64,000 nt of DNA, from the IMG/VR virus record IMGVR_UViG_3300025892_000008; one strand, written 5' to 3'. Each line of letters starts with the position of its first letter. Within the stretch, counting starts at the first letter, position 1. The notes beneath the pieces are model-generated. The model was not told where the DNA came from. It made no database searches and saw only the letters and a list, made by a program, of their open reading frames with translations. The translations under genes and the position numbers were made by a program. Below are positions 1-17,744 of this stretch, one piece after another. The DNA is from a virus. Lineage: Duplodnaviria; Caudoviricetes.

Positions 1-207
1 TACACTAGAGTCTACTATACTAATATAGGCCCCGCTGCAAGGGTTGTGCGTGTGTGCGTGTATACATGTGTACTATACGTATGAGTCTAGGTTACTGTCA
101 ATATCAACACACAATCAACACAATACCAAGAGTATCAAGAGTGGGGATCAATGGTTCAATAAACGGTTATCAAGGGTGGGATCAATGCCATCAAAGAGTG
201 CATTTAA

Positions 208-240
208 TGGTTGACACAGGCTGTCAAAGGTGCTATTATA
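208..240 (+). promoter_or_regulatory. sigma70-type promoter for the tRNA pair
   Basis: TTGACA followed by TGCTATTAT just upstream of tRNA-Arg. Confidence 0.6.
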
Positions 241-256
241 CGTGTACATTAATTAA

Positions 257-333
257 CTGCCCTTAGCTCAGCAGGATAGAGCAACGGTCTTCTAAACCGT
301 AGGTCAGAGGTTCGAATCCTCTAGGGCAGGCCA
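257..333 (+). tRNA. tRNA-Arg(UCU)
   Basis: Cloverleaf: CTGCCCT/AGGGCAG acceptor, anticodon loop CTTCTAA, GGTTCGAATCC T-arm, encoded CCA. Confidence 0.97.
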
Positions 334-337
334 ATGA

Positions 338-422
338 GCCCGCGTGATGGAATTGGTAGACATAACGGACTTAAAATCCGTGGCCATACGGCGTGCCGGT
401 TCGAGTCCGGCCGTGGGTACCA
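338..422 (+). tRNA. tRNA-Leu(UAA)
   Basis: Anticodon loop CTTAAAA, long variable arm, GGTTCGAGTCC, encoded CCA. Confidence 0.97.
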
Positions 423-485
423 TAAACACTCACTGTGCGCAGCAATGCAGCACGGTGGGTGGGCATAAACAAGAGAGGAATACTG

Positions 486-665
486 ATGGCACGTAAAGCA
501 AAAGTCGTAGAAGAACCAAGAGAGACCCGCACCGAAACCATAGAACAATACCTAGCAAGAGGGGGCAAGGTTACTGTATGCCCACCAGGCCAGCGCAGTG
601 AAGATGTAGCGTACAAAACAGGTCCGAAAAGCAGAGGGCGCAAGAAGAAAACTGAAAAGGATTAA
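486..665 (+). CDS. SutA-like small protein (putative RNA polymerase-binding regulator)
   Basis: GAGGA RBS before ATG 486; TIEQYLARGGKVTVCPPG resembles the SutA-family FLxRGGK(I/V) motif. Confidence 0.5.
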   Translation: MARKAKVVEEPRETRTETIEQYLARGGKVTVCPPGQRSEDVAYKTGPKSRGRKKKTEKD

Positions 666-693
666 CTAACACGTGTAGCAGCAATTGCTGTGG

Positions 694-727
694 GCGCATG
701 CGGCTAGGGTTGCATGCGCTTTTTTTA
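694..727 (+). terminator. intrinsic terminator
   Basis: GCGCATGC/GCATGCGC stem followed by T8. Confidence 0.7.
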
Positions 728-842
728 TGGCACATTGCGTGCTGCGCATGCTGCTACAATTGTTAACAAGTTATGTAGATTTTGGTTGCATTTTGGACAA
801 AACTGTTGTATACTTAGTATAACAATTAAGGAGCGAAAACAC

Positions 843-995
843 ATGTACATAAACTTACAAGACTTATACGCAGCGTTTGCTGCTACTCCGCTACAGCAGC
901 GTTATGCATTCTGCATGCAGCACAGCACTTACAACTTAGCGTACAACATAAATTGGCACAACTGTGCTGCACATTGGAAACAGTACGCAGCATAA
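843..995 (+). CDS. early hypothetical protein
   Basis: Promoter and GGAGCG RBS (830-835) before ATG 843. Confidence 0.7.
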   Translation: MYINLQDLYAAFAATPLQQRYAFCMQHSTYNLAYNINWHNCAAHWKQYAA

Positions 996-1121
996 GCACA
1001 ACGTTGCGCAGCACTGTAGTACTGTGTGCTGCGCACAACTGTTAACATGTTATGTTTATTTTGCTTGCATTTTGGACAAACATGTGCTATATTAAGTATA
1101 CAATAACAACACGGAGCGAAC

Positions 1122-1514
1122 ATGAAGAACACGATAAACATTACTACACGTGAACTAAAACACTTGTGCAACTTTTTAACAAACACTATGAACTACAAAG
1201 TAAACTTAGTAAGTGATGAAGACTTTGCATACGATGAAGACGGCGGCTACAACTGTTACGATTGGGTAGCAGCAACGGACGAACTGTGCGCACAAACTGC
1301 TGCTGTACTAGATAGTTACTTTAATAAAAAGGACACAAGTGCTGCTACAGCACTAGCACATGCTATTGATTACAGATACGATGATGATTGTATTAATGAA
1401 GGTATAAGCGAACACTTTTACGATTACTGCAAGCAGCACAACTGTATGCAGTTGTACTACAAGCAGGCAGACGCACACGATTACGACGGAGAGGATGCTG
1501 CGCTGCGTATGTAA
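1122..1514 (+). CDS. early hypothetical acidic protein (proline-free)
   Basis: Own promoter and GGAGCG RBS; no TC/CC on the coding strand. Confidence 0.8.
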   Translation: MKNTINITTRELKHLCNFLTNTMNYKVNLVSDEDFAYDEDGGYNCYDWVAATDELCAQTAAVLDSYFNKKDTSAATALAHAIDYRYDDDCINEGISEHFYDYCKQHNCMQLYYKQADAHDYDGEDAALRM

Positions 1515-1578
1515 AAAACACTTGACAGTTTGGAAAAACTGTGCTACTATGCAAATATAATAACATTATGGAGCGTAC

Positions 1579-1863
1579 ATGTTAAACACAACACAAGTTA
1601 AAGATTTAGTTAAGCAACGTTTTGGCGGAAGTTTAAAACAAGTATACTTAAACAAATGCTATAGTAATAAACAAGAGATAGCAGACAAACGCAACATGGC
1701 TTTTGCTGTAGATGGAGACGTGTACACAAATGTGGACTTAACAGCACTAGCAAAAGAAATAGGATGCAAGCGTATAAAACTACACGCTGCATTTTTAAGA
1801 GGAATGCAAAGTGGAGCATGGTTACGTTTAATACATGTGCATTATGCATGTAAAAATAATTAA
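1579..1863 (+). CDS. early hypothetical protein (proline-free)
   Basis: TTGACA promoter and GGAGCG RBS. Confidence 0.75.
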   Translation: MLNTTQVKDLVKQRFGGSLKQVYLNKCYSNKQEIADKRNMAFAVDGDVYTNVDLTALAKEIGCKRIKLHAAFLRGMQSGAWLRLIHVHYACKNN

Positions 1864-1931
1864 AATAATGCTTGCATTTTGGATAAAATGAAAGTATAAT
1901 GTATATAACAATTAAGCATAAGGAGCGCAAC

Positions 1932-2069
1932 ATGCAAAAACTACTAAACAAAATTACATTTTATTTTTTAAACAGGGCGTTTACACAAATGGAGCAAAGC
2001 AACGATTTGCAAAATGATGATAAAGTTGCGGAGCACATTGAAGATTATTATACGTATTTTGTAAAATAA
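1932..2069 (+). CDS. early 45-aa hypothetical protein (not in ORF track)
   Basis: Promoter and AAGGAGCG RBS; MQKLLNKITFYFLNRAF...YFVK*. Confidence 0.7.
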   Translation: MQKLLNKITFYFLNRAFTQMEQSNDLQNDDKVAEHIEDYYTYFVK

Positions 2070-2136
2070 CGCTTTACATACTAGCACGCATGTGCTAGTA
2101 TGCATTATAAACTAAAACAACAGCGAGGAGCGCAAC

Positions 2137-2337
2137 ATGGGAATGTACAATTTAATTGAAGACAATGTAGAACAGTTTTACAAACTGGCAACAGCAGCAT
2201 GCGAACAGTGTGAGACACGTGAACAACTGTTAAACACTATGCGCAAGCACACTGGGCTGCTGTGCGGAAGCAGCGAAGCGGATGAGGATGCATGGCACGA
2301 AGGACTAAGCGAGCTGTGGCGTGAGCAGTACGTGTAA
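2137..2337 (+). CDS. early hypothetical protein (proline-free)
   Basis: GGAGCG RBS at 2127-2132. Confidence 0.75.
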   Translation: MGMYNLIEDNVEQFYKLATAACEQCETREQLLNTMRKHTGLLCGSSEADEDAWHEGLSELWREQYV

Positions 2338-2428
2338 ATTAATTTAAAAAAAGTGCATTTAGTACTTGACATTTTGGACAAACTGTAGTACTATGTATAT
2401 ATTAACTTAAACAAACGGAGCGTAACAC

Positions 2429-2893
2429 ATGTTAAACACACAAGCAAACAACACTAAAATTAAAACAGTAACTACACGTGATGGGGACATTGCTGTGCAA
2501 TTGGAAATTGATTTAGCACAGCACAACTTGCAAGTTAACGGACGTAAAGTGGAAAGCATTACTATGTATGCGGATGCGGAATGTAGTGGGGACTTAGCAG
2601 TTAACTGGGAAGAGGAAGACGACAGTAACTACGTACACAACAGCAGCATGCTAATGCGTGACACTAGTGACAGTAACAACAACACGGACACAATGGGACA
2701 GTTTTATTGGGACAGTTGTTTTGATGACACACTTGTGCAACTGTTACAAGAAAATGGATTTAGCAAAAGTGCTAGTGAGGACGTATGCGGAAGTGAATGG
2801 GGCATGCAGGATGTGGGACGTGCAAGTTACGACGCTTTTGCAATAGCAACGGAAATACTTGCAGCACACAACATTGCATATGAGGACGCATAA
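2429..2893 (+). CDS. early hypothetical acidic protein (proline-free)
   Basis: TTGACA promoter and GGAGCG RBS at 2417-2422. Confidence 0.8.
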   Translation: MLNTQANNTKIKTVTTRDGDIAVQLEIDLAQHNLQVNGRKVESITMYADAECSGDLAVNWEEEDDSNYVHNSSMLMRDTSDSNNNTDTMGQFYWDSCFDDTLVQLLQENGFSKSASEDVCGSEWGMQDVGRASYDAFAIATEILAAHNIAYEDA

Positions 2894-3106
2894 CAATATA
2901 CGCTGCGTGTGCAGCACATAGTACTACAACTGTGTGCTGCACAACATGCTGCTGCTGCGCAGCGTGTGCATGCAGACCCCGCTGCACGTATTTGTAAAAG
3001 TTGTTCTTTGTGTTCGCAGTAAGCACATTAGTTAAAAAGTACTTGACAAACACATTTAAATGTAGTATACTACAATCAACAATTAAGTATTAACGGAGCG
3101 TTCAAC

Positions 3107-3418
3107 ATGTATTACATATACGATAAGCAGTCAACACGTATTATCAATAAGCCGTCAAAGCCCTATCTACAATGCTGCTACAAGACGATGGCAGCAGCAC
3201 AGGCACAACTAACACGTATGCATAACAAGCACGTGAAGACTAAGGACAGTGCAACTAGCCCACTGTACACTGCTGCAATTGCAGAAGCAGCGTACTACGC
3301 TAGTAACATTGAGAAGCAGGTGACACGTAAGAACATGATGACGGGTAAACAGTATACAGAGAGTGTTAACACTCCAAGTTACATGTCGCCCAGCAGCGAG
3401 AGCTACTGGAGCATGTAG
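3107..3418 (+). CDS. early phage hypothetical protein
   Basis: Promoter and GGAGCG RBS; C-terminal NMMTGK...NTPSYMSPSSESYWSM recalled as a recurrent phage motif. Confidence 0.8.
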   Translation: MYYIYDKQSTRIINKPSKPYLQCCYKTMAAAQAQLTRMHNKHVKTKDSATSPLYTAAIAEAAYYASNIEKQVTRKNMMTGKQYTESVNTPSYMSPSSESYWSM

Positions 3419-3567
3419 ATAACCCAGACCCCGCTGCAGGGGTCAGGTAGGCAGGCTGCGCAGCATGTGCTGTGGCCGAGTTGAGGTAGAATAGGATTCA
3501 ATCAACAGCAGCGTAACATGAAAGGAGAACACTTTTAACGAAGGCAGACTAGTTAAAGGTGGGGAAG

Positions 3568-3600
3568 CAGCAGCATTGTTCAACAGTGCTGCTGTTTTTT
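3568..3600 (+). terminator. intrinsic terminator
   Basis: CAGCAGCATTGT/ACAGTGCTGCTG stem followed by a T-run. Confidence 0.75.
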
Positions 3601-3693
3601 TATCAACACCCCTTCAACAACTGCATGTGCTGCGTGCGGAGGTGGGGAAGCAGCACACAGTTGTAGTACTGCGTGCTGCTAGTGCTGCGTTAA

Positions 3694-4032
3694 TTAACTA
3701 ACGCAATTGTTATTTTCAATTGTTGCTAACAATGCATTATCTTTATGCACGTGTTGCAAGTAACTGTTAAACATATTTTCAACATATACGTTTTTAGTTT
3801 GTGCGCTTATGCGCAAATCATGCTGTAAACGCATTACGCTTTTTGCTAGTTGCTGCATTGTAGTTTGCTGTTGCTTATAATACGGCGGCTTTTTTGCTGC
3901 TTGCTTTGCTGCATTAATAGCACTGTTAACAGCATTGTACTGCTGCATTTGCTGCTGTGTTAATTTTACATTGCTGTTGCGGAATTGCAAGTAGTTAGCA
4001 TGTGTTACTGTAGTGTTTTTTGTTATTTGCAT
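3694..4032 (-). CDS. early hypothetical Gln/Ala/Asn-rich protein
   Basis: Minus-strand copy of the early promoter and GGAGCG RBS (4036-4041). Confidence 0.75.
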   Translation of the reverse strand: MQITKNTTVTHANYLQFRNSNVKLTQQQMQQYNAVNSAINAAKQAAKKPPYYKQQQTTMQQLAKSVMRLQHDLRISAQTKNVYVENMFNSYLQHVHKDNALLATIENNNCVS

Positions 4033-4280
4033 GTACGCTCCTTATGCTTAATTGTTATATGTATAGTAACATAAAAATTTCCAAAATGCAAGCAAATAAA
4101 ACATAACATGTTAACTAATTTTTCAATGCTGCGCTGCTAGTGCTGCACGCTGAGGCCGTCTCGGCCACATGCACGGGGAGGCGCCTTTTTGTTCTTTTGT
4201 TCTCTTTTTGGTAAATGAGGGGTTGACAAATAATTTTAGTGACTGTATACTGTATATAACAATTAGGAAAAGGAGCGAAA

Positions 4281-4568
4281 ATGATACAAGCACTAGAAGA
4301 GTACGTAGCCCAGCAGAACAGTTGGAACAAGATATTCGACAAGACCCACGTGGACATAGACGTGAATAACATGTCGAAACTACAAGCAGACGATCTAATA
4401 CGTAAACTAGATTCAGAAATGAGCCCAGAAAACTTACACTGTGATGGCGAGATAACCCACAGCCAGGCCCAAGACAAGTATGATTACTTCATGGCAGTGT
4501 GGCAGGACTTGCGAAGTGTATACTATAAAAAGCAATGGACTCTTCCACCAGTTTGGGAATTGGCCTAA
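4281..4568 (+). CDS. early hypothetical protein
   Basis: Promoter and GGAGCG RBS; LSPENLxCDGE-like motif. Confidence 0.8.
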   Translation: MIQALEEYVAQQNSWNKIFDKTHVDIDVNNMSKLQADDLIRKLDSEMSPENLHCDGEITHSQAQDKYDYFMAVWQDLRSVYYKKQWTLPPVWELA

Positions 4569-4646
4569 ATTAATTTGCAATTAGGGGTTGACATTGTTAA
4601 CCACTGACTGTATACTGTAAGAACAATGAAACATAAGGAGCGAAAT

Positions 4647-5675
4647 ATGTCAAAGAAACTAGTTAAGTTTAAAGAGAGCGGCTTTTATAATATACGTGGT
4701 AAGGCCACAGATGTAAAAGGTTTAGAGTTTCCGCTTATTGAAGATTGGAAGAAAGGCGCAGACATGGTCGGCTATGTAACAGTAGACGGATCATACCAAG
4801 CAGGCTTTCCTACAAGAAACATCCGAGTCAAATGTGATCAGAATGCTTTTTCGCTGATTGATCCATCCAAGGCGGCAGCCAAGGCAGAAGAAACAGATGA
4901 GCAGATCATCGAGCGTCTTCGTAAGAGATTTGACATCCTTGAAGACATGACACAGGCTACCAAAGAAGGTACAGTGCGAGCAATGATCGTTACAGGCCCT
5001 CCAGGTGTTGGTAAGTCCTTTGGCGTTGAGAAGACCTTGAACAAGGAAGACTTGTTTAATGTAATGGGTCAGCGAAAGCCAAAGTATGAAGTTGTCAAGG
5101 GTGCAATGTCCGCCATAGGCCTCTACTGTAAATTGTATGAGTTTGCCGACAAGGGTAACGTTGTCGTATTTGATGACTGTGACTCGGTACTACTAGATGA
5201 CCTGTCGCTGAACATTTTGAAAGCGGCATTGGACTCTAGCACAAAGAGAACTATCCATTGGAACACAGACAGCTCGAAGTTGAGAGCAGAAGGCGTACCA
5301 GGATCGTTCGAATTCAAAGCAGGTGCGATCTTTATTACGAACATCAAGTTCGAGAACGTACGAAGCAAGAAGTTGCAGGATCACTTAGCGGCACTAGAAA
5401 GCAGATGCCACTATATTGATCTGCAAATGGATACAGAGCGAGAGAAAGTGCTCCGTATCGAACAGATCGTCAAAGATGGAATGTTAGATACTTACGACTT
5501 CCAAAACGGCGAGGCTGAAGAGGTTGTTGGTTTTATCAATGATCAGAAGAAGAAGTTGAGAGAACTATCTCTCAGAACAGTGTTGAAGATTGCTGATCTT
5601 CGTAAGTCATTCCCAGGCAACTGGAAAGAGATGGCTGAAGTCACTGTAATGAAGACAGGACGATATGCCGCTTAG
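4647..5675 (+). CDS. AAA+ family P-loop ATPase
   Basis: Walker A GPPGVGKS, Walker B VVFDDCD, sensor ITN, SRC arginine finger; start after GGAGCG. Confidence 0.85.
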   Translation: MSKKLVKFKESGFYNIRGKATDVKGLEFPLIEDWKKGADMVGYVTVDGSYQAGFPTRNIRVKCDQNAFSLIDPSKAAAKAEETDEQIIERLRKRFDILEDMTQATKEGTVRAMIVTGPPGVGKSFGVEKTLNKEDLFNVMGQRKPKYEVVKGAMSAIGLYCKLYEFADKGNVVVFDDCDSVLLDDLSLNILKAALDSSTKRTIHWNTDSSKLRAEGVPGSFEFKAGAIFITNIKFENVRSKKLQDHLAALESRCHYIDLQMDTEREKVLRIEQIVKDGMLDTYDFQNGEAEEVVGFINDQKKKLRELSLRTVLKIADLRKSFPGNWKEMAEVTVMKTGRYAA

Positions 5676-5778
5676 GTATATTTTGGACATATTGGGGGTT
5701 GACTTTCGAGTCAACTCTCAGTATAATATAAAGACGCTGGGGACACAAATGGACTCCGGCAATATCAAAGGAGATAAT

Positions 5779-6066
5779 ATGAAACGTTTTAATCCAAAAA
5801 CAAAAACTTTTAAGGTGTTTTCTGCACTTTATAACGGCGATGCTCTAACTTCAGCGAAAGCGAAGAAAATGGGTGTTGGTAACCTTGGTGCGGAAGTATC
5901 AAGAATCAAGCAGAATGGTTATGCTGTATATACAAGTTCACGTAAGGCTGGCAACGGCGTAAGAGTGACTGAGTATGTAATGGGAAAACCATCACGTGAG
6001 ATCGTTGCATTAGGTTATGCGGCTAAATCAAAAGGTTTGACACTAGATACTATTACTAGCATCTAA
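5779..6066 (+). CDS. small basic protein, possibly winged-HTH DNA-binding
   Basis: AAGGAG RBS; LTSAKAKKMGVGNLGAEVSRIKQNGYAV pattern. Confidence 0.55.
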   Translation: MKRFNPKTKTFKVFSALYNGDALTSAKAKKMGVGNLGAEVSRIKQNGYAVYTSSRKAGNGVRVTEYVMGKPSREIVALGYAAKSKGLTLDTITSI

Positions 6067-6084
6067 GTAGTCACAAAAGATACA

Positions 6085-6126
6085 AAAACTGGCGTCATCC
6101 GATTCGCTCCCGGAGCCAGACTTTTT
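6085..6126 (+). ncRNA. 3'-UTR hairpin with anti-GGAGCG loop (copy 1)
   Basis: CTGGC..TCCG-ATTCGCTCC-CGGA-GCCAG; apical 18 nt identical to copy 2. Confidence 0.6.
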
Positions 6127-6129
6127 GGG

Positions 6130-6158
6130 TAGGCACTCTTTGTAGTGCCTATTTTTTT
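6130..6158 (+). terminator. intrinsic terminator
   Basis: TAGGCACT/AGTGCCTA stem followed by T7. Confidence 0.85.
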
Positions 6159-6251
6159 GACTAAAATAATCCAAAATAAATTGCATTTAGGGGTTGACTT
6201 CTTGAACAATAGAAGGTATAATGTATATAACAATTAGGAAAAGGAGCGAAT

Positions 6252-6413
6252 ATGTACCAAGATATAGATGTAAGAGACCAAGCAATTGAAATGGTAGAAG
6301 ACGGTCAAGTCGATGCTAAGGCAATGCTAATTATGGCTCTGAAGTATATGAGCACAGACGACGTGGCTGATATGCTAGATACGAACGAATTATCAGAAAG
6401 ATTTGGTAATTAG
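6252..6413 (+). CDS. early 53-aa hypothetical protein (not in ORF track)
   Basis: Promoter and AAGGAGCGAAT RBS; MYQDIDVRDQAIEMVEDG... Confidence 0.75.
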   Translation: MYQDIDVRDQAIEMVEDGQVDAKAMLIMALKYMSTDDVADMLDTNELSERFGN

Positions 6414-6485
6414 GGGTTGACATATGATGCAGATGATTGTATTATATAATAACAAACTTAGACAATTAACAGAAAGAGGTCAATT

Positions 6486-7565
6486 ATGAGCGACATGAGT
6501 ATAAGGCAGGTTGGGCCTAAATCAGCCAAGACATCGATTGCATTCGCAATTAAAATGAAACGCCCTACATTTTTATGGGGCCCTCCAGGCATTGGTAAAT
6601 CAGATCTAGTTCAGCAGATTGGTGCTGATACTGATCGTGAGGTTATTGATGTTAGGTTGGCACTATGGGAGCCGACAGACATTAAAGGTATTCCATACTT
6701 CGATTCCAATGCAGGAACGATGACATGGGCACCGCCGGCAGAACTTCCTACAGACCCTGATAGCAAGGCTATCTTGTTCTTAGACGAATTAAACTCTGCT
6801 CCACCAGCCGTGCAAGCCGCGGCCTATCAGTTAATCCTTAACCGTAAGGTAGGAACTTATGTATTGCCTAAAGGCGTTGACATTGTCGCCGCAGGTAATA
6901 GAGATGGTGATAAGGGTGTCACATACAGGATGCCGGCTCCTTTGGCGAACAGATTTGTTCACTTGGAGATGAAGGTAGACTTTGATGATTGGCAGGACTG
7001 GGCTACCTTGCACGGTATCAATCCTGAGGTAGTTGGTTATATTGGTTATGCCAAGCAGGACTTATATGACTATGATCCAAAGAGTCCTTCGAAGTCATTT
7101 GCAACTCCTCGTTCTTGGAGTTTCGTGAGTGACTTGGTTAGCGATACTGAGATTGATACAGAGTCGTTGACTAATTTGGTATCAGGCGCAATTGGCGATG
7201 GGTTGGCTGTGAAGTTTATGGCCCATAGAAAGATTGCTTCTAAACTTCCTAAGCCAGATGATATCCTTGACGGTAAGGTTAAGGATCTTGAAATTAAGGA
7301 AGTATCAGCGATGTATTCCTTAACCGTTGGACTCTGCTACGAGTTGAAAGACAGAGCAGACAAGAAGGTTAGCGATTGGGATAAGATGGCTGACAGGTTC
7401 TTTGAGTATATGATGAAGAACTTTCCTACAGAACTTGTCGTGATGGGAGCCAAGACAGCTCTTACAAATTACGACTTGCCCTTAGACGCTTCTAAAATGA
7501 AATCCTTTGATGAGTTTCATAAGAGGTTTGGCAAATATGTTATGAATGCTATGGAGACAGATTAA
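6486..7565 (+). CDS. MoxR-family AAA+ ATPase
   Basis: GPPGIGKS, LFLDELN, AAGN, LANRF motifs. Confidence 0.9.
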   Translation: MSDMSIRQVGPKSAKTSIAFAIKMKRPTFLWGPPGIGKSDLVQQIGADTDREVIDVRLALWEPTDIKGIPYFDSNAGTMTWAPPAELPTDPDSKAILFLDELNSAPPAVQAAAYQLILNRKVGTYVLPKGVDIVAAGNRDGDKGVTYRMPAPLANRFVHLEMKVDFDDWQDWATLHGINPEVVGYIGYAKQDLYDYDPKSPSKSFATPRSWSFVSDLVSDTEIDTESLTNLVSGAIGDGLAVKFMAHRKIASKLPKPDDILDGKVKDLEIKEVSAMYSLTVGLCYELKDRADKKVSDWDKMADRFFEYMMKNFPTELVVMGAKTALTNYDLPLDASKMKSFDEFHKRFGKYVMNAMETD

Positions 7566-7640
7566 TTGACCTACTCCATAGGTATCATAGGGTGCAAGGG
7601 GTCTAAGCCTTGCACCCACCCTAATTTAATTCAAAATAGT

Positions 7641-7698
7641 GGTTGACACTTTGGATAAAAGAAGGTATAATGTATATAACAATTAGGAAATGGAGCGA
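7641..7698 (+). repeat. representative early promoter-RBS repeat (near-identical at 10662-10719; related copies at about 20 sites from 785 to 13982)
   Basis: GGTTGACAnTTTGGATAAAAGAAGGTATAATGTATATAACAATTAGGAAAnGGAGCGA. Confidence 0.9.
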
Positions 7699-7703
7699 AA
7701 CAT

Positions 7704-8939
7704 ATGAATGCAATTGAAGAAAAACTTACAACCGCAAGGGTTGGATTACTTCTAAAAACTCCGTTCTTTGGCAATATGGCTACAAGAATGAAGATCATCA
7801 ATGCTGACGATTGGTGTCAGACTGCCGCAACTGACGGTAGAAACTTCTATTACAATACAGAATTCGTTAAGAAGTTATCCACAAAGAAATTAGAGTTCCT
7901 CTTTGCACACGAAATAGGTCATTGTGTATTTGATCATTTTGGTAGAGCAGGTAGCAGGAACAGACAACTCTGCAATATCTCACAGGACTATGCAATCAAC
8001 CAGATCCTCGCAGATGAGAAGATCGGTGAAGTGATTGACGAAGTTCCTATTTGCTTGGACTCACAATACAGAGGCTTGGCTTGGGAAGAGATCTACGACA
8101 AGTTATATGAGAAGGCAGACATCCAAGAGATTACATTAGATCAACTAATGGAGGGACTGGGTGAAACACTTGATGAGCATATTAACGGTGACGGTGCTCA
8201 AGGTCAGAAAGGACAAGACAAGGAGCAAGATAGCGATACAAGAGGTAAGGCTCCTGTTCTAACTAAAGAAGAAAAGCAGAAGATCAAAGATGAGATTAAA
8301 GAGGCTATGATCCAGAGTGCGGCGGCGGCTGGTGCAGGTAAGACTCCAGGTGCTATCCAGAGACTGATCAAAGACTTGACAGAAGCAAAGATGAACTGGA
8401 GAGAGATTCTTAGAATGAATATCCAGAGCATTATTAAGAATGATTATTCATTTACTATTCCAAGTCGTAAGGGTTGGCACACAGGAGCAATCCTCCCAGG
8501 TGTTAAGAACGATGAGACAATTGATATTGCTATTGCGGTAGACATGAGTGGTAGTATTGGGATGGACGATGCCAAAGTGTTCTTTTCAGAGATCAAAGGT
8601 ATTATGGACCAGTATGAAGACTTCAGCATTAAGGTATGGTGCTTTGATACAGAGGTCTACAATTATGCAGAGTTCAGTCAGGACAATGTAGAAGAATTGT
8701 TAGACTACGAGCCCAAAGGTGGCGGTGGTACAGAGTTCGTTGTGAACTGGGACTTTATGAAAGAGAATGCAATTGAGCCTAAGAAATTTGTGATGTTCAC
8801 TGATGGTTATCCTTGGGGTAGTTGGGGTGATGAGAACTATTGCGATACCCTGTTCATAGTGAAGGGTAATGAACGAGCAGAAGCGCCGTTCGGACAGACG
8901 GTAATCTATGAGAAAGACGCGGCCCTACATGGAGAATAA
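7704..8939 (+). CDS. metallopeptidase-like plus VWA domain protein (DUF2201 type), MoxR partner
   Basis: HEIGH zinc motif, DMSGS MIDAS motif, GGGT, FTDG. Confidence 0.88.
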   Translation: MNAIEEKLTTARVGLLLKTPFFGNMATRMKIINADDWCQTAATDGRNFYYNTEFVKKLSTKKLEFLFAHEIGHCVFDHFGRAGSRNRQLCNISQDYAINQILADEKIGEVIDEVPICLDSQYRGLAWEEIYDKLYEKADIQEITLDQLMEGLGETLDEHINGDGAQGQKGQDKEQDSDTRGKAPVLTKEEKQKIKDEIKEAMIQSAAAAGAGKTPGAIQRLIKDLTEAKMNWREILRMNIQSIIKNDYSFTIPSRKGWHTGAILPGVKNDETIDIAIAVDMSGSIGMDDAKVFFSEIKGIMDQYEDFSIKVWCFDTEVYNYAEFSQDNVEELLDYEPKGGGGTEFVVNWDFMKENAIEPKKFVMFTDGYPWGSWGDENYCDTLFIVKGNERAEAPFGQTVIYEKDAALHGE

Positions 8940-9177
8940 TGAACTGAGAGATATGATAGGATCCCCATTCAAGGTGGGGTCACCCTGTGTATGGACCACC
9001 CACAACTTCCAGTGGATAGGGACCGTGGTTAAGGTATGCAAGAGCAGGGTAAGGGTTAAGCCTCTACCGGGCTCAACGAGATACACCCGTTATGAAGGAT
9101 TGCCATTCCCGGAGAAGGTAATACAACTAGATTCGATGCCAAAATCAGCACTATTCATGGCAATAAAAAGTGGTTGA
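8929..9177 (+). CDS. hypothetical protein (SH3-like beta fold possible)
   Basis: ORF overlapping the stop of the VWA gene. Confidence 0.6.
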   Translation: MENNELRDMIGSPFKVGSPCVWTTHNFQWIGTVVKVCKSRVRVKPLPGSTRYTRYEGLPFPEKVIQLDSMPKSALFMAIKSG

Positions 9178-9230
9178 CATTTTGGATAAAAGAAGGTATA
9201 ATAATAACATAATAACAATAAGGAGCGAGT

Positions 9231-9923
9231 ATGACAATAGAATATAGCATAGCACACCGAGATCCTGTGACCCTTATAGGATACAATGGCGAAGGTGCAA
9301 TCAAATACAATGTGACAGGCTACAAGAGAGAGTTCTTGGAAGTCAAGGTAAGACGAAATAGATCTTACAATGATGACTCTTGGTCTTGGGAAATTGAATT
9401 AGATGTTCCTAGGTATGGTAGAGATAAAGATCAGGAGCCTTGCAATATCAAGGTAGCCAAGTATATGACATCAGCAATGGCTGAGGCTATCAAAGAGATG
9501 GAGAGCATCCAGGATCAGATCCCTACTATGGATAAAGAGTATGAGAGAGGCCAGAAGGAAAGGGAAGAGAAGCGAGTAAGAGAAGCGGCCGAGAGACAGG
9601 CTAAGATTGACGCTGACAAACCCGTAGGGCATAAACTAGCAAAGACTATCTGTGATGAGATGGTTAAGCAGGCTAGAGAGACTGAGCAGGATAGCAAGGA
9701 GATCGTGTTCCAGACTAGAGGCGATCATAGAGAAGAGAAGATGCGATGCGTCTACACTATGAGTGGGTTGACTCTGTTTAACATGGGTTGGAATAGAGTA
9801 AGTCGTAAGGATGCGGTAAGGAAACTTGCAGACGCTTGGTTGGCTAGTGTTGATACAGGCGATGTGAAGGATAGCATACCTGACGCTAGATTGGCAGGAT
9901 TTATGATGGGCGGTAAGAACTAG
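9231..9923 (+). CDS. early hypothetical protein
   Basis: Promoter and GGAGCG RBS at 9222-9227. Confidence 0.8.
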   Translation: MTIEYSIAHRDPVTLIGYNGEGAIKYNVTGYKREFLEVKVRRNRSYNDDSWSWEIELDVPRYGRDKDQEPCNIKVAKYMTSAMAEAIKEMESIQDQIPTMDKEYERGQKEREEKRVREAAERQAKIDADKPVGHKLAKTICDEMVKQARETEQDSKEIVFQTRGDHREEKMRCVYTMSGLTLFNMGWNRVSRKDAVRKLADAWLASVDTGDVKDSIPDARLAGFMMGGKN

Positions 9924-10030
9924 GGGCAAATACCCCGCTGCAAAGAGCCCCTAATTTGGATATTAGGGGTTGACAGATTGGATTTATGATAGTATTATAT
10001 ACATATAATGAAAATTAAGGAGCGAACAAT

Positions 10031-10309
10031 ATGAAAGCATTTGAACAGGCAATTGAAGCAATTAATAAGATCGACACCACAGAAGAGATAAGAGACCTCT
10101 TTGATGCGATCAGGCTTCGTCAAACATTCCTAGGTAACAAGACCATTAGGGCTCTTGCAACTGGTGACAATGTATCCTTTAATGGTAAGAATGGTTACAC
10201 CAAGGGAACAGTCAAAAAAATCAACAGAAAATATGTATTGGTAGACACTGCTCGAGGACAGTGGAGAGTGCCTGCTACAATGCTAACCAAGGAGGACTCA
10301 TATGCTTAA
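10031..10309 (+). CDS. early hypothetical protein (SH3-like C-terminus)
   Basis: Promoter and GGAGCG RBS; GTVKKINRKYVLV..WRVPATML. Confidence 0.8.
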   Translation: MKAFEQAIEAINKIDTTEEIRDLFDAIRLRQTFLGNKTIRALATGDNVSFNGKNGYTKGTVKKINRKYVLVDTARGQWRVPATMLTKEDSYA

Positions 10310-10445
10310 GGCTATCGTATTTGGTATCCTGGGTGCAGGTGCGATGTATCTGTATTTAGGACACGGCGACATCCCTGCATTCATTGACATGCTCAAAGGT
10401 ATTGTCAATCAAGGTGCAGGCATAGTAGAAGAAGCGACCCAGTAG
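10302..10445 (+). CDS. 47-aa membrane peptide
   Basis: GGAGG RBS; hydrophobic N-terminus. Confidence 0.6.
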   Translation: MLKAIVFGILGAGAMYLYLGHGDIPAFIDMLKGIVNQGAGIVEEATQ

Positions 10446-10667
10446 ATGATCTACAAGGGCTTCCGATACGAGCAGGATATCCAAGAGGAAGAGGATAACC
10501 GCAAGATATTCCACGAAGTAATTGACCCGCAAGGCAATAATGTAAGGTGGGGATTGCTTCCGGCAAGTTGGCACGATATAAGTCCGTATCGTTCCGCAAC
10601 TGTAGAGGAATTTGAGGCGGCTGTTAATGAGGTTATTTTTTATAATTTTGTTGCAGAAAATGGTTGA
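10446..10667 (+). CDS. hypothetical protein
   Basis: ORF abutting the upstream stop codon. Confidence 0.65.
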   Translation: MIYKGFRYEQDIQEEEDNRKIFHEVIDPQGNNVRWGLLPASWHDISPYRSATVEEFEAAVNEVIFYNFVAENG

Positions 10668-10721
10668 CAGTTTGGATAAAAGAAGGTATAATGTATATAA
10701 CAATTAGGAAAAGGAGCGATT

Positions 10722-11054
10722 ATGTATAAACTAGATAGCAATGATGCAATGATAAACGGCACTAGCCTGCAAGGACACATTGAGGCAAGTTATGATGACT
10801 TGGTTAAGGCGTTTGGTGCTCCGGCTTTTGACAGCGTGGTAGACGGCGACAGCGACAAGGTGCACACTGAGTGGGCACTTGAATTCCAAAATGAAGAAGG
10901 CGATTACATTACCGCTACAATTTATGACTGGAAAGAATATAACGCCTACACTAGCAGGACGGGCAAGTATAGGTGGCACATAGGTGGCAATAGTTATGAA
11001 GCGGTTGAGGCCGTGTATGACTATGCTAATCTAAAGGAGGTTGCTGATGCCTAA
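10722..11054 (+). CDS. early phage hypothetical protein
   Basis: Promoter and GGAGCG RBS; GTSLQG..DKV.TEW..ATIYDWK motif. Confidence 0.8.
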   Translation: MYKLDSNDAMINGTSLQGHIEASYDDLVKAFGAPAFDSVVDGDSDKVHTEWALEFQNEEGDYITATIYDWKEYNAYTSRTGKYRWHIGGNSYEAVEAVYDYANLKEVADA

Positions 11055-11643
11055 TTGGTGCGATAATACAATTTCAATTACGGGGCCAGCAGAGAAGTTG
11101 AGCCCCATGTATACCAAGTTGGTAGCAGAAGAGGAAGAAGGTTTGTTAAGCATCCTCTATCCTCAACCAGCAGACATCTTTAAGGGTGATCTGGGAGACA
11201 AGGAACGAAAGCAATGCGCCAAGGACGGTGTTCCTAACTGGTACGATTGGAACAGTTCTAACTGGGGTACCAAGTGGGATGTATCAGAAGGTAACTGGCA
11301 ATATGAAGATGCTGGTGACGGTCAAGCAATCCTAACAGGCAACTTTGAAAGTGCTTGGGCTCCGCCAACAGGTGTATATGAACACTGCCAGACAGCACAC
11401 GACGATCTATACATTGAAGCAATGTATTATGAACCCGGCTGTGCATTTGCAGGCATGTGGACAAGTGATGGTGGTGATGATCATTACAGCCTAGAAGGCG
11501 ACAAGGCCGCATTGGAGAACGAACTTCCAGAAGAACTGAATGATGCTTTTGGAATTACGGAAAACATTGAAGAGGAACCAGAAGAGTTGACTGAATGGTT
11601 GAAAGAAGGTTCCGAAGCAAAGAAGGAGTTGGTCGGTGGATAA
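11047..11643 (+). CDS. DUF1281/YubB-like ferredoxin-like domain protein
   Basis: MPNWCDN start, NWGTKWD, F.SAWAPP, YEPGCAFAG. Confidence 0.75.
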   Translation: MPNWCDNTISITGPAEKLSPMYTKLVAEEEEGLLSILYPQPADIFKGDLGDKERKQCAKDGVPNWYDWNSSNWGTKWDVSEGNWQYEDAGDGQAILTGNFESAWAPPTGVYEHCQTAHDDLYIEAMYYEPGCAFAGMWTSDGGDDHYSLEGDKAALENELPEELNDAFGITENIEEEPEELTEWLKEGSEAKKELVGG

Positions 11644-11842
11644 TACTGTTCCAGCAAAGAGAAGATTCACTTACACACTTTCAGTAGAGTGTGCGAGCGA
11701 AGGGAATGCTGATTTGGATGCAGTTGAAAACATCCTAGATCTACATTTTCAGGATTTGGTAATGGACGATACATTCGTGAACGAATTAGACGAAAGTCAA
11801 TCCGTTACCATTCAAGTAGTACCCAATTTTGGAAAGAAATAA
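11636..11842 (+). CDS. hypothetical protein
   Basis: ORF overlapping the upstream stop codon. Confidence 0.65.
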   Translation: MDNTVPAKRRFTYTLSVECASEGNADLDAVENILDLHFQDLVMDDTFVNELDESQSVTIQVVPNFGKK

Positions 11843-11937
11843 TGGTTGACATCCAATCCAAAATATGGTATAATAACATTGAGCCTGTAGGAACAGGTTC
11901 ATTAATTAACTAAGAAAGGCTAATAGAGGTAAACATT

Positions 11938-12255
11938 ATGGCAACAGAAAAAAAGTTCTCAGTAGTAGGTGTATCAACCCTGAACGGGAAAACAAAGATT
12001 AGATTCGCAAACGATAGTATGAGGATCAAGATCTTACTTAAGAATGGTCATGAAGACGTAGATATGATCAATCTTGATAGGGAGATGTATAAGTGGGAAA
12101 TCGCTGAACATCTAAAGGCAGTTAATTTTGCGAAAGACAATAGCGCCACAAAGAATGCTATTGACTATATCGCTAAAAAGAATCCAGCGCCGGAAGGCAT
12201 GGATGCTCCTGCAGAAACTAACAAAGAAGAAGCAGTTGAGCCAGTGGTAGCATAA
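11938..12255 (+). CDS. phage hypothetical protein
   Basis: Own sigma70-type promoter, AGAGG RBS (not GGAGCG). Confidence 0.8.
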   Translation: MATEKKFSVVGVSTLNGKTKIRFANDSMRIKILLKNGHEDVDMINLDREMYKWEIAEHLKAVNFAKDNSATKNAIDYIAKKNPAPEGMDAPAETNKEEAVEPVVA

Positions 12256-12284
12256 TCCGATTCGCTCCCGGAAGCGACCACTAG
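12242..12284 (+). ncRNA. 3'-UTR hairpin with anti-GGAGCG loop (copy 2)
   Basis: AGTGGTAGC..TCCG-ATTCGCTCC-CGGA..GCGACCACT. Confidence 0.6.
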
Positions 12285-12289
12285 TACCT

Positions 12290-12339
12290 GAGGAAGGCTA
12301 GCATGCCCTCAAATATTATGCTAGTCTTCCTCTTTTTTT
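12290..12339 (+). terminator. intrinsic terminator
   Basis: GAGGAAGGCTAGCAT/ATGCTAGTCTTCCTC stem followed by T7. Confidence 0.85.
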
Positions 12340-12402
12340 GGTTGACATTTGGATAAAAGGGTGCTATATTAAGAGTATAATAAGAAACAGAAAGAGAGCG
12401 TT

Positions 12403-12567
12403 ATGTTAGAATTAATTGGTTTTTGTGCAGTTGCTTACTTGGTGTTCAAGTTTGCGCCTGCGATATTAGAAGTTGGATTTAAGTTTGCGGTTATATGCTT
12501 AGGTCTAGTTGCATTTTTCTTCATACTGAGTTTTGTATGGGGTACAATTTTAATCGCGATTAACTAG
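12403..12567 (+). CDS. 54-aa two-helix membrane peptide
   Basis: Promoter and GAGAGCG RBS variant; hydrophobic throughout. Confidence 0.65.
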   Translation: MLELIGFCAVAYLVFKFAPAILEVGFKFAVICLGLVAFFFILSFVWGTILIAIN

Positions 12568-12576
12568 GAGGACTAT

Positions 12577-12756
12577 ATGGGAGAGCTATTAGAAATCATT
12601 GAAGACCTTAAGAGCCTGGATGCAAACGACGACCCAATCGAAAGAAAGATTGAATTGGGCGAGTTGATTACGAAATACCAGGATCGTTTTGACACAGCCG
12701 AGCGTGATATATCGCGTCAAATGGAGCTCGATTTAGTTCAAACAATCTGCAAATAA
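12577..12756 (+). CDS. 59-aa acidic hypothetical protein
   Basis: GGAGG RBS. Confidence 0.65.
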   Translation: MGELLEIIEDLKSLDANDDPIERKIELGELITKYQDRFDTAERDISRQMELDLVQTICK

Positions 12757-12817
12757 TGGTTGACAAATTGGATAAAATCCTGTATACTGTAAGTATAAAC
12801 AATAAAGGAGCGAGCAT

Positions 12818-13231
12818 ATGAAATTAGTAATCCACACACAGTTCAAAGAAAACTACGGCGCCCACACATGGGACGGCGAAGGCGAGTGTCCACAGTATTG
12901 GAAGTTCAAAGGCGGAGAGACCTTCGTGCTCCCAGGAGTAGACACGGAACTGTTGGTGCCCGCTCTGCGAGACCTAATCGAGTACAAGGACGACGGGTCC
13001 GAAGAATACATTCTCAACGCAGAGGTTGTAGAGGATGACGCTGTGATATGCGAAGAGTGGGAAACTCCGTGGACCATATATGCAGAGGACATGGGCTTCT
13101 ATGCCAGCCGTTATGTGAAGGCAGAAGACTATTGGCAACCTGGCTACAAGGGCAAGGCCCAGAGCTACAAGATGCTGCCTAAGGGTGAGCGTGAAGCGTG
13201 GAGCGAGGAATACATCAAGGAGGCAGCGTAA
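12818..13231 (+). CDS. early phage hypothetical protein
   Basis: Promoter and GGAGCG RBS; TQFKENYGAH..YWKFKGG motif. Confidence 0.8.
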   Translation: MKLVIHTQFKENYGAHTWDGEGECPQYWKFKGGETFVLPGVDTELLVPALRDLIEYKDDGSEEYILNAEVVEDDAVICEEWETPWTIYAEDMGFYASRYVKAEDYWQPGYKGKAQSYKMLPKGEREAWSEEYIKEAA

Positions 13232-13473
13232 TGAAGTTCCTGCTTCTGAGTGTTATGCTAGCCGGGCAACCCCTATACGACACAGAGGCCACCTGCACCA
13301 AGGCAGCAACGGTAATCAACGACAGTTATCCAGAGCAGAAGAGCATATGCATACCTGCGCCCACTGTGTATTTCGAGCAAAACCAGGAAGATAAAGCGTT
13401 CAATAACTTCTATGATTTGATCATAAAACTGAGAAATTTACCTCCTAAAGAGGTTGACATTTTGGAAGAATGA
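13231..13473 (+). CDS. secreted or lipoprotein-like hypothetical protein
   Basis: Signal-like MKFLLLSVMLAG start; TAATG overlap with upstream stop. Confidence 0.6.
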   Translation: MKFLLLSVMLAGQPLYDTEATCTKAATVINDSYPEQKSICIPAPTVYFEQNQEDKAFNNFYDLIIKLRNLPPKEVDILEE

Positions 13474-13513
13474 TAGTATTATATACTTACTAACTTAAAC
13501 AAAAGGAGCGAAT

Positions 13514-13903
13514 ATGTTTGTAGAAAAAACCGTAACAGCGACACCAACATTTGACACAGTAAAGGTCCAAATGATCCACACAGAAGCAACCAGTGCTGCT
13601 AAGGCTGCTGTTGCTAAGATGCTGGACGAATGGACAGAAAGCACAGGCGGCAACCAGTATGGTGAGCCTATGTATTGTGGATTTGCTTGGGTAGATGTTA
13701 AAGAGCGAAGCAATAGTAAACTGGGCAAGGCTCTACAGAGCATAGGTTTCCGTAAGAGCTACCAAAGTGGTGTTCTTCAGTTATGGGATCCTGCACAGCA
13801 TAGAGGGCAGAGCATGGATTGCAAAGAAGTGGGTGCCAGTGCTTATGCTGCTGTATGGCGTGAATATGGCGTAAAAATGCACATGGGTTCGCGTGCAGAC
13901 TAA
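13514..13903 (+). CDS. early hypothetical protein
   Basis: Promoter and GGAGCGAAT RBS; CGFAWV motif. Confidence 0.8.
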   Translation: MFVEKTVTATPTFDTVKVQMIHTEATSAAKAAVAKMLDEWTESTGGNQYGEPMYCGFAWVDVKERSNSKLGKALQSIGFRKSYQSGVLQLWDPAQHRGQSMDCKEVGASAYAAVWREYGVKMHMGSRAD

Positions 13904-13985
13904 GGCTACATTTTGGATATTAGGGGTTGACAAACAGCCCCTAATGTCATATATTAGTAGTATGAAACAAACAAAAGGAGCGATT

Positions 13986-14189
13986 ATGAAAACGATTATA
14001 AACACAATAGCAATGGTATTGATAGCAGTAGGCATTATGGCTATGGCTGGTAGTGCTAATGACTGTGATGGTGCATGTATGGAGACTGCTAACACATTTG
14101 GTGAGATGCTGTTAATAGCATTTGTAGGTTTAATTATGACACTGTTTGGTGGAATGATACTTGCAGTAAATGGAGAAGAGGATGCGTAA
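13986..14189 (+). CDS. early membrane protein (proline-free, TC/CC-free)
   Basis: Promoter and GGAGCG RBS; two hydrophobic segments. Confidence 0.75.
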   Translation: MKTIINTIAMVLIAVGIMAMAGSANDCDGACMETANTFGEMLLIAFVGLIMTLFGGMILAVNGEEDA

Positions 14190-14306
14190 GGCATTCTTGT
14201 TAGTGTGTGCTGTGATGTTGTGTAGTGCGTGTAGCCTACGTGATGTACAGCACTCTACTAATGCATACAACCTATATGGCAATGCAGACATTAAGGAAGA
14301 AGTAAT

Positions 14307-14534
14307 ATGGAAAATACGATCAGCCGTTGGGCAGTAATACTGTTAATAGGATGCACGCTAGGAGGCTGTGTGTATCCATACGACAAGGATCGTCCATATG
14401 ATCCTAACTTCACCAGCAACCAATTGATAGATCAGATCCCTAACTGGGAAGGTGAAGCACTGCGCAAGCGAGCATGCGGCATGCCCAAGGCAGAGCGTTA
14501 CAGTTGGATGCGCAATCAGGACTGTGGGGACTAG
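14307..14534 (+). CDS. putative lipoprotein
   Basis: LGGC lipobox-like motif after a hydrophobic segment. Confidence 0.55.
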   Translation: MENTISRWAVILLIGCTLGGCVYPYDKDRPYDPNFTSNQLIDQIPNWEGEALRKRACGMPKAERYSWMRNQDCGD

Positions 14535-14535
14535 C

Positions 14536-14718
14536 ATGTACAGAGTCTACTACACACAGGACACAGTAGAGCAATACGAGGGCTTCTACGAAACACAAGA
14601 AGAAGCCGAAGAGGTTGCCCTTCACTGCTCAGATGATTACGACGCTGAAAGAGTAGAAGTTCGTGACCGTTTCGATAATATTATTTTTGTCATCGATGAT
14701 GAGGTGGTGGTCACATAG
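14536..14718 (+). CDS. hypothetical protein
   Basis: Acidic ORF following GGGGA. Confidence 0.55.
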   Translation: MYRVYYTQDTVEQYEGFYETQEEAEEVALHCSDDYDAERVEVRDRFDNIIFVIDDEVVVT

Positions 14719-14870
14719 ACACCGACCGGTATAGTACGTATGCGCATATAGTGTATTTTGATTGGCTAGTGGTCTAGAATCACCACCCAGAAATGAAAAG
14801 TACTCCACCACAATTTTTTGCGCAGCAATTTTTTTATCCCTGTAGACCCATTTGGGCAATAAATATACAC

Positions 14871-14993
14871 ATGCGCAAGTTAGTAACACATCGACGCAAT
14901 CGCAAACCAGACCAGTATGTGGTATATGAAAATGGTTGGGTAGTTGTAGTAACTTGCAATCTCTTAATAGCAAGGAAATTCATGAATGATTAA
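14871..14993 (+). CDS. hypothetical protein, leaderless start
   Basis: TAAATA-N5-ATG. Confidence 0.55.
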   Translation: MRKLVTHRRNRKPDQYVVYENGWVVVVTCNLLIARKFMND

Positions 14994-15201
14994 ACAATAC
15001 TGTGTATACACCCGAGACTTTGTGAACACGCCACTGCTGTTCAACCGTATACAAGAACACAACGTAAAGTTTGAAGCACACATCAATAGAACACGTTTTT
15101 GGTTGGATACCAGTCTTAAACAGCATAGAACATTCTATCTACACTATAGAGACTACATGCACTGTGTAGATGCAGAAACGGATCACTCTAGCGGCACATA
15201 A
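14986..15201 (+). CDS. hypothetical protein
   Basis: Coupled ORF; FEAHINRTRFWL motif. Confidence 0.6.
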   Translation: MIKQYCVYTRDFVNTPLLFNRIQEHNVKFEAHINRTRFWLDTSLKQHRTFYLHYRDYMHCVDAETDHSSGT

Positions 15202-15416
15202 TGTACACACTGCACCTAGCCTACCCAGACAACAAACTGCACGACTACTGTGATAACATTACGCACAGTGCAGTAATAGAACTGTTTGTAAAGGGCATAG
15301 ACAGCAGTCAAAACAGTCATAATTCAATTATACTACACAGTGCTAAAGACTGTACACTAGCATGTGCTATACTAGGTTCAAGTGAGTTGTACACTGTTAA
15401 AATAGCGTCTAAATAG
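15201..15416 (+). CDS. hypothetical protein
   Basis: TAATG translational coupling. Confidence 0.55.
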   Translation: MYTLHLAYPDNKLHDYCDNITHSAVIELFVKGIDSSQNSHNSIILHSAKDCTLACAILGSSELYTVKIASK

Positions 15417-16601: not shown

Positions 16602-16602
16602 C

Positions 16603-17463: not shown

Positions 17464-17472
17464 ATACCCTGT

Positions 17473-17697: not shown

Positions 17698-17744
17698 GAG
17701 ATAACTACTCACATAACTAAAATCAACCTAACCCAAGGATAGTT

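Follow-up and report, generated by a model that had tools for sequence, protein, structure and literature searches.

Hairpins with Loops Complementary to a Shared Ribosome-Binding-Site Tag in a Marine Giant Phage, a Probable RNA Switch on Translation

The DNA analyzed here (the window, a single stretch of 64 kb) comes from an uncultured marine giant myovirus whose genes include those for a 1139-aa sheath protein, a DnaB-like helicase, and the large terminase. The nearest cultured relative is Pseudomonas phage PA5oct, with ∼53% amino-acid identity in the terminase and an ATPase; DNA searches for cultured relatives found nothing at near-identity and only short distant matches, in two neighboring genes. 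Bases 1 to 18,000, the early block, are filled with small plus-strand genes, mostly one per near-consensus TTGACA-17-TATAAT promoter, and have a G+C content of 42%. The GC skew flips sign at ∼18000, where the G+C fraction falls from ∼0.42 to the ∼0.34 of the rest of the window. The late genes, on the minus strand from 18000 to 64000, have no Shine-Dalgarno (SD) site (e.g., those at 43299, 53707, 55553, and 57981); because they start only 5 to 6 nucleotides (nts) past a (T)ATAAATA-like box, they appear to be leaderless. Three tRNA genes are present, at 257 to 330 and 338 to 419 on the plus strand and at 19345 to 19418 on the minus strand. The coding strand of the first early genes (1001 to 2976, plus strand) is practically devoid of TC and CC, with 0 in 1001 to 2500 and 3 in 2501 to 3000 versus ∼30 to 45 per 500 nts elsewhere in the window, and GA and GG are at normal levels there; our guess is that this shortage avoids a pyrimidine-C-specific nuclease or deaminase.

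Within the early block lies a winged-helix gene (HTH_39, phrog_4973; 5779 to 6066, plus strand) with a sigma-70-type promoter (TTGACT-17-TATAAT; 5699 to 5727, plus strand) and the ribosome-binding site (RBS) AAAGGAGA; its protein had no match in the phage collection. Just upstream is a phrog_1250 AAA-type ATPase gene (4647 to 5675, plus strand). Beginning 23 nts past the TAA of the winged-helix gene, a hairpin (copy 1; 6089 to 6119, plus strand) reads CTGGC-GTCA-TCCG-ATTCGCTCC-CGGA-GCCAG. Its outer stem is formed by CTGGC (6089 to 6093) and GCCAG (6115 to 6119), GTCA (6094 to 6097) is a bulge, and the inner stem of TCCG (6098 to 6101) and CGGA (6111 to 6114) closes a 9-nt loop (6102 to 6110, plus strand; AUUCGCUCC as RNA). 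RNAfold predicted the same structure and left the loop open (z = −3.6). Copy 1 is followed by AC-U5, yet a separate strong intrinsic terminator comes straight after it (6130 to 6158, plus strand; TAGGCACT-CTTTGT-AGTGCCTA-T7, with an 8-bp stem and a 6-nt loop), and then the next promoter. There is no terminator between the ATPase gene and copy 1. An initial annotation had placed these stems, loop, and terminator in the 3′ untranslated region (UTR) of the winged-helix gene, and all were located there.

A second hairpin (copy 2; 12244 to 12282, plus strand) has an apex, at 12256 to 12272 with its loop at 12260 to 12268, identical to that of copy 1. Its outer stem is different and takes in the last codons and the TAA of a gene for a 105-aa protein (P0001; 11938 to 12255, plus strand), so that the stop codon abuts the apex. 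That gene has an extended −10 promoter (11846 to 11874, plus strand; 12/12 consensus positions and TG) and the RBS AGAGG. Copy 2 has no U run; behind it lie an intrinsic terminator (12290 to 12339, plus strand) and then a promoter. Each of the two hairpins is thus found after a stop codon, with its own outer stem, and before an intrinsic terminator. No function was predicted for the 105-aa protein. It gave nothing significant against Pfam, PHROGs, and Atlas, where the only match was a subthreshold one to YxiJ, and its AlphaFold model (pLDDT 80) had no significant fold match in the PDB and no hint of an RNA chaperone.

The 17-mer TCCG-AUUCGCUCC-CGGA occurs exactly at 6098 to 6114 and at 12256 to 12272, versus 0.02 occurrences expected in the window, and a covariance-model search of the 64-kb window found no copy beyond these two. 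That the loop is the exact complement of an RBS, GGAGCGAAU, was confirmed: GGAGCGAAT occurs four times where 0.12 is expected, and the four are two RBSs (6243 and 13505) and, on the opposite strand, the two hairpin loops. The loop contains a UUCG of the YUNR type, and it fits the U-turn motif of that name known from the loops of antisense RNAs. We dropped a reading of the apex as a T-loop or a UUCG tetraloop, because the position equivalent to A58 is a C and the tetraloop lacks the C-G closure. Small minus-strand open reading frames (ORFs) were also considered. Both copies in the window give 11-codon ORFs behind GGAGCGAAU, but because the ORFs of the relatives vary from 2 to 45 codons without conserved sequence, a coding role was rejected.

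The core of the complementary site, GGAGCG (the tag), occurs 18 times on the plus strand, from 830 to 13,977, and 17 of the 18 lie 3 to 7 nts before an ATG. The distance from GGAG to ATG is 5 to 9 nts, as for an SD site. All 17 plus-strand tags are 15 to 25 nts past the −10 box of a strong promoter; the leaders of these messages would therefore be only ∼20 to 30 nts long. The full-length tag GGAGCGAAU, which matches the loop at nine of nine positions, is at 6243 to 6251 (the RBS of the gene at 6252 to 6413) and 13505 to 13513 (the RBS of the gene at 13514 to 13903). The shorter GGAGCGAA is at 830 to 837, 1113 to 1120, 4272 to 4279, 4637 to 4644 (the RBS of the ATPase gene at 4647 to 5675), 7692 to 7699, and 10019 to 10026. 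GGAGCGA is at 9222 to 9228, 10713 to 10719, 12807 to 12813, and 13977 to 13983, and GGAGCG is at 1570 to 1575, 1922 to 1927, 2127 to 2132 (with a promoter at 2073 to 2101 identified by the promoter scan), 2417 to 2422, and 3095 to 3100, all on the plus strand. These positions agree with the pairing lengths given in the initial annotation. A tag on the minus strand, at 4036 to 4041, belongs to the minus-strand gene at 3694 to 4032. Operon-internal genes have AGGAGG sites, not GGAGCG, and an ATPase gene at 6486 is untagged, as are the winged-helix and 105-aa genes. Promoter-leader modules recur nearly verbatim within the window.

To these we added leaders from related loci, giving a set of 266 unique promoter-proximal leaders. 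GGAGCG was present in 144 and GAGCG in 24 more, which puts the tag on ∼54 to 63% of them. Among the 182 unique leaders with GGAG, the next bases were C (85%), G (91%), A (68%), and A (54%). Promoter-proximal first cistrons behind most of the strong host-type promoters of this lineage are marked by the tag.

Between the loop and all 17 plus-strand tags there is complementarity of 6 to 9 nts. The duplexes predicted for 14 tagged start regions ranged from −10.2 to −14.3 kcal/mol, and those for 156 untagged start regions had a mean of −3.7 (standard deviation, 1.8) and a best value of −8.8 kcal/mol. The two groups did not overlap. The CG(A) part of the tag cannot pair with the standard 16S tail, and loop-tag duplexes were predicted to be ∼5 kcal/mol stronger than those of the tag with the standard anti-SD tail. 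With a 9-nt loop on a 3- to 4-bp stem, all nine pairs cannot form unless the stem opens. In addition, loop positions 1 and 2 (AU) are conserved despite the variability of tag positions 8 and 9, so pairing leaves some constraint unexplained.

Exact scanning of IMG/VR with the 17-mer gave 7 matches, of which 3 were true relatives; the others were in coding sequence (L002) or in the reverse orientation, as a ribosome site (L001/L007 and L006). Because by a rough estimate a few chance matches are to be expected for a 17-mer, the matches were judged by context and not by count. A pattern scan of uncultured phage contigs with the 15-nt core yielded at the least, among the matches listed, well over 100 distinct contexts. 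In these listed matches the loop is invariant in >100 contexts with diverged flanks, stems, and carriers, the orientation of the hairpin relative to the genes is constant, and in every case the hairpin adjoins, or is the apex of, an intrinsic terminator. The closing stems vary around the constant AUUCGCUCC and include CCG/CGG, CG/CG, CUG/CAG, GUG/CAC, CCUAGG, and CCUUGG. When 42 unique instances were aligned, the apex was invariant and pairing in the outer stem was kept through double changes in 10 to 19 sequences at three pairs; the loop is open in the folds of about 35 of 43 unique genuine instances. Conservation of the loop in GGAGCG-bearing relatives, on which the initial annotation had made its reading depend, was therefore borne out.

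Anti-tag hairpins were found behind three different genes. The winged-helix gene has >80 relatives in IMG/VR, and in ∼55 of these CCGATTCGCTCCCGG lies 15 to 30 nts past the stop codon, with varied outer stems and then a terminator. The remaining relatives have an unrelated palindromic hairpin in the same place, and the first cistrons nearby are leaderless and carry no tags. In such relatives (L046, L052, L058, L059, L061, L083, and others) the early genes begin with TATAAT, 5 to 6 nts, and ATG, and the palindrome after the winged-helix gene and before its terminator, GG(A/T)TAGGCCTA(T/A)CC, covaries. In relatives of the 105-aa gene the hairpin begins 0 to 1 nt past the TAA. One variant there has a stem one base shorter on both sides together with the loop GUUCGCUCC, and another, seen in a single case, has the loop AUUCGCUUC and still pairs with GGAG through G-U; the two variant loops thus keep pairing with GGAGCGAAC or, via G-U, with GGAG. 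A third variant, AAUCGCUCC, retains the 7-nt core alone. Separately, the terminator apex at L259 is AUUCCUCC, a canonical anti-SD-like loop in place of AUUCGCUCC, with a single G missing.

The third carrier is the phrog_1250 ATPase gene, the orthologue of the window gene at 4647 to 5675 that sits just upstream of the winged-helix gene. Its orthologues have the anti-tag hairpins directly in their 3′ UTRs (∼38 contexts among the matches listed). Mostly there are two hairpins and sometimes three, with differing stems, the last being the terminator apex. In these relatives the carrier ATPase gene is itself tagged. The initial annotation had reasoned that a carrier gene would escape its own hairpin through an untagged RBS; this is so for the winged-helix gene of the window and fails in the relatives with the tagged ATPase carrier, so we dropped self-avoidance as general evidence. 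Downstream of the tandem anti-tag terminator, a group of loci (L232, L233, and L248 to L300) has a conserved GGGGTCGGGG followed by (C/T)ATATA and a TTGTTG...CAACA hairpin; this composite motif may serve as a phage-specific promoter for the gene block that follows. In contig G003, the place of the 105-aa gene is taken by a TTGACA-17-TACAAT promoter, ∼70 nts lacking a credible ORF, then the hairpin and last a terminator; there is no coding gene. This unit folds into four hairpins (z = −7.8) and looks like a free-standing small-RNA gene.

We compared the presence of tag and hairpin in 82 distinct loci that were fetched by protein homology and are not phylogenetically independent. Fifty-four had the hairpin and at least two tags, 26 had neither, and 2 were discordant, one of them at a contig end. 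Tandem pairs of hairpins lie on the same strand at the downstream end of a 16-gene tag cluster in G007 and of a 14-gene tag cluster in G008. Two hairpins lie within the main tag cluster of G006 (353 kb, 98% complete), and in G009 the loop, with CUG/CAG stems, is also within a tag cluster. PA5oct has neither tags nor hairpin, and both are absent from the most distant ATPase relatives. No covariation of loop with tag was found, the tag being identical in all relatives reached; only presence and absence can therefore be compared, and these are confounded by phylogeny.

The exact reverse complement of the hairpin, CCG-GGAGCGAA(U/C)-CG(G), occurs in related contigs, including G006 and G009, between the TAAATA late box and the ATG. 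The genes with this leader encode a 93-aa membrane protein (phrog_18771) and a CsgF-like secreted protein (PF10614); the leader is found at L138, L139, L136, L159, and L006, at L234 and L241 in G006, and at L244 in G009. An endonuclease VII gene (L001, L119, L192, and L196) has the same leader hairpin without a late box, directly behind the stop codon of the upstream gene. These leaders have 13 to 15 nts of complementarity to the anti-tag hairpin, and none was found within the 64-kb window. They suggest that the anti-tag could have originated by inversion and that it may have further targets.

Parts of the early region are present in four metatranscriptome RNA libraries, as assembled contigs. 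One contig (X20) ends at 6112, inside copy 1, and another (X17) ends at 12273, one base past the copy 2 apex. These ends, which could be RNA 3′ ends, reverse-transcription stops, or assembly breaks, are suggestive at most.

A role at the RNA level is well supported: the stems covary, the closing stems vary while the loop stays fixed, the hairpins keep one orientation relative to the genes and are linked to terminators, and one unit stands alone. Also supported is the view that the hairpin is a selected RNA structure whose loop belongs together with the GGAGCG tag. Because the complementarity is more specific than chance would allow and follows the tag from genome to genome, loop-tag pairing is the probable function; because the tag contains the SD core, occlusion of the ribosome site, i.e., repression, would be the likely outcome. 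We lean, with slightly better than even confidence, toward the hairpin being an anti-ribosome-site RNA that would pair with tagged leaders and lower their translation. The two hairpins would then be members of a conserved phage RNA family in which a 9-nt loop presents the complement of a private tag (A-GGAGCG-A-A). The winged-helix and 105-aa transcripts would end at the terminators just past the hairpins, and the resulting RNAs, whole or processed, would leave the anti-tag loop exposed to pair with 6 to 9 tag nts within the short leaders on other messages of the phage. Such pairing would cover the SD sequence, and translation would fall as the anti-tag RNA accumulated. The pairing would not affect messages that have canonical AGGAGG sites, nor the late ones that lack leaders, and this would fit a shift of translation away from the tagged early genes. 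RNA stability, processing, action in trans, and the repressive direction are what we infer in this scheme.

The initial annotation had gone further, proposing a regulator of the whole early class that acts through a shared RBS barcode. Its linkage of loop and tag stands, given the complementarity, the constancy of the loop, the co-occurrence, and the free-standing unit. Its "whole early class" does not: the tag goes with promoter-proximal first cistrons, the operon-internal genes and the ATPase gene at 6486 lack it, and in relatives it also precedes a few late-promoter genes. An extension that we regard as tentative, and on balance doubtful, would have an RNA-only private translation code. In it, the first-cistron tag GGAGCGAA would be read by anti-tag RNAs of one to three loops, the leaderless late genes would be immune, and late leaders with the tag in a hairpin would be controlled through kissing hairpins, which might act on late functions in the membrane or in lysis; the anti-tag itself would derive from leader inversion.

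Some observations fit an anti-ribosome-site RNA poorly. The regulator and its targets would be made simultaneously from similar promoters, with two sources for ∼17 targets, and loop positions 1 and 2 are more conserved than pairing needs. Moreover, because the carrier ATPase gene is tagged in relatives, pairing could occur in cis. The 3′ anti-tag would then fold onto the 5′ tag of the same long ATPase-operon message and limit its translation once transcription was complete, the other tagged genes being bystanders. The position of the relatives' hairpins directly in the 3′ UTR of that tagged gene speaks for this arrangement, as does the absence in the window of a terminator between the ATPase gene (tag at 4637) and copy 1. 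We nevertheless think it improbable, because copy 2 and the winged-helix unit are each served by a separate promoter and an untagged leader, coding genes are absent from the G003 unit, and conservation of the tag on 14 to 17 genes per genome would be unaccounted for. About equally improbable, in our judgment, is a site for protein binding or processing (antitermination, 3′-end protection, or nuclease entry) in which the match to the tag would be an accident or a leftover from the hairpin's origin. The constant association with terminators among the matches listed and the conservation of all nine loop bases, two of them unexplained by the variable tag positions, would suit such a site. Its difficulties are that a chance match of the 9-nt loop to the 6- to 7-nt tag core has a likelihood of ∼1e-3 to 1e-4, that it gives no cause for co-occurrence with the tag at the level of locus and genome, and that the closing stem is free to change, unlike that of typical protein-recognized stem-loops.

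Since the stem is palindromic, a single inversion of the leader CCG-GGAGCGAAU-CGG would give the anti-tag hairpin, and the hairpin could be a nonfunctional by-product of shuffling at cassette junctions. Both the reverse-complement leader hairpins of several genes in related contigs and the near-verbatim promoter-leader repeats of the window are what shuffling would leave behind, but a by-product is hard to reconcile with a loop that is invariant, and always in the same orientation, in >100 diverged contexts among the matches listed. Tandem duplication and retention in G003 after loss of the upstream gene also argue for function. Inversion may account for the origin of the hairpin, not for its maintenance, and we consider the by-product explanation very unlikely. 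We give still less credence to GGAGCGAAT as a double-stranded DNA site for a phage regulator, placed downstream of early promoters and, reversed, near terminators. The tag does lie 15 to 23 bp past the −10 box of every tag-bearing early promoter; however, the 5 to 9 nts from GGAG to ATG are SD spacing, and the reverse copies are always part of hairpins whose outer stems covary, a feature for which DNA binding would have no use.

No Rfam family matched in the window or in five related loci, and a literature search on GGAGCG with Shine-Dalgarno and phage returned nothing relevant. The initial annotation did not recognize the hairpin as a described system; its design does have a precedent, being shared with the cuckoo/CcsR small RNAs (sRNAs). 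These RNAs of the alphaproteobacteria (RSs0680 and alpha-r14) consist of 1 to 4 adjacent hairpins with highly variable stems and the same anti-SD-like loop motif, CCUCCUCCC (PMC4615179; RF02791), and are cotranscribed with the upstream gene (PMC4615179). Variable stems around a constant anti-SD-like loop make them the closest design to the phage hairpins. They differ in the loop itself (CCUCCUCCC versus AUUCGCUCC), in facing the general SD sequence instead of a private tag, and in being encoded by bacterial chromosomes instead of lytic giant phages. As for hairpin number, the window has single hairpins at two sites, and those of the relatives come in tandem, as pairs or triplets whose stems differ. 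RF02791 matched the G003 unit weakly, at 20 bits versus a gathering threshold of 65.3 bits, so the unit is not a member, and there was no match in the window.

Among phages the closest precedent is the c4 antisense RNA of P1 and P7; its loops, complementary to sequence around a ribosome site in a message of the phage itself, block translation (PMC12197685; RF01695). The complementarity of the anti-tag loop to the 17 plus-strand tags is of this kind, a shared mode of action and not membership; RF01695 gave nothing at an E value of ≤1 in the window or in five related loci. c4 serves one operon, icd-ant, in a temperate phage and is excised from the leader of that operon, whereas here the targets would be many and dispersed and the source is a 3′ UTR or a free-standing unit. 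The RegB endoribonuclease of T4 inactivates early messages as a class by way of the GGAG at their ribosome sites. Whereas RegB is a protein with nuclease activity, an RNA loop is proposed to do the reading in the present phages, and the sequence to be read has CG(A) added to GGAG. The anti-tag hairpins resemble 3′-UTR-derived sRNAs in being located in a 3′ UTR, sharing the terminator of the upstream gene, and offering a conserved seed, the invariant loop, that is unpaired in most folds. Abundant noncoding RNAs that lack a start site of their own and are matured from the 3′ UTR of the phage gene upstream are described for Pseudomonas phage PAK_P3 (PMC10914365). They have no sequence relation to the hairpins, and the available part of that source gives neither a function nor complementarity to ribosome sites for them (PMC10914365). 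With the lambda-type nut site (boxA/boxB) only the position before terminators is alike. The PeSL cassettes of T4-type phages reportedly are repeated promoter-leader modules before small early genes, with hairpins as junctions of leader recombination; PeSL hairpins are not described as having loops complementary to a ribosome site. As judged from these comparisons, the anti-tag RNA would work like cuckoo/CcsR or P1 c4 and belong to neither family.

We found no such system described for lytic phages in the literature or in Rfam, and the hairpins probably form a translational RNA switch that has yet to be described. The timing of gene expression in lytic phages is usually credited to promoters, to sigma factors, and to RegA, RegB, and similar proteins. 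If the proposed pairing is true, these phages would have a switch at the level of translation in which an RNA reads a private extension of the ribosome site common to a group of the phage's genes. Short and sharply defined, the element is found widely in giant phages of marine and other environments, and the pair of tag and anti-tag could be a compact orthogonal part for translational control.
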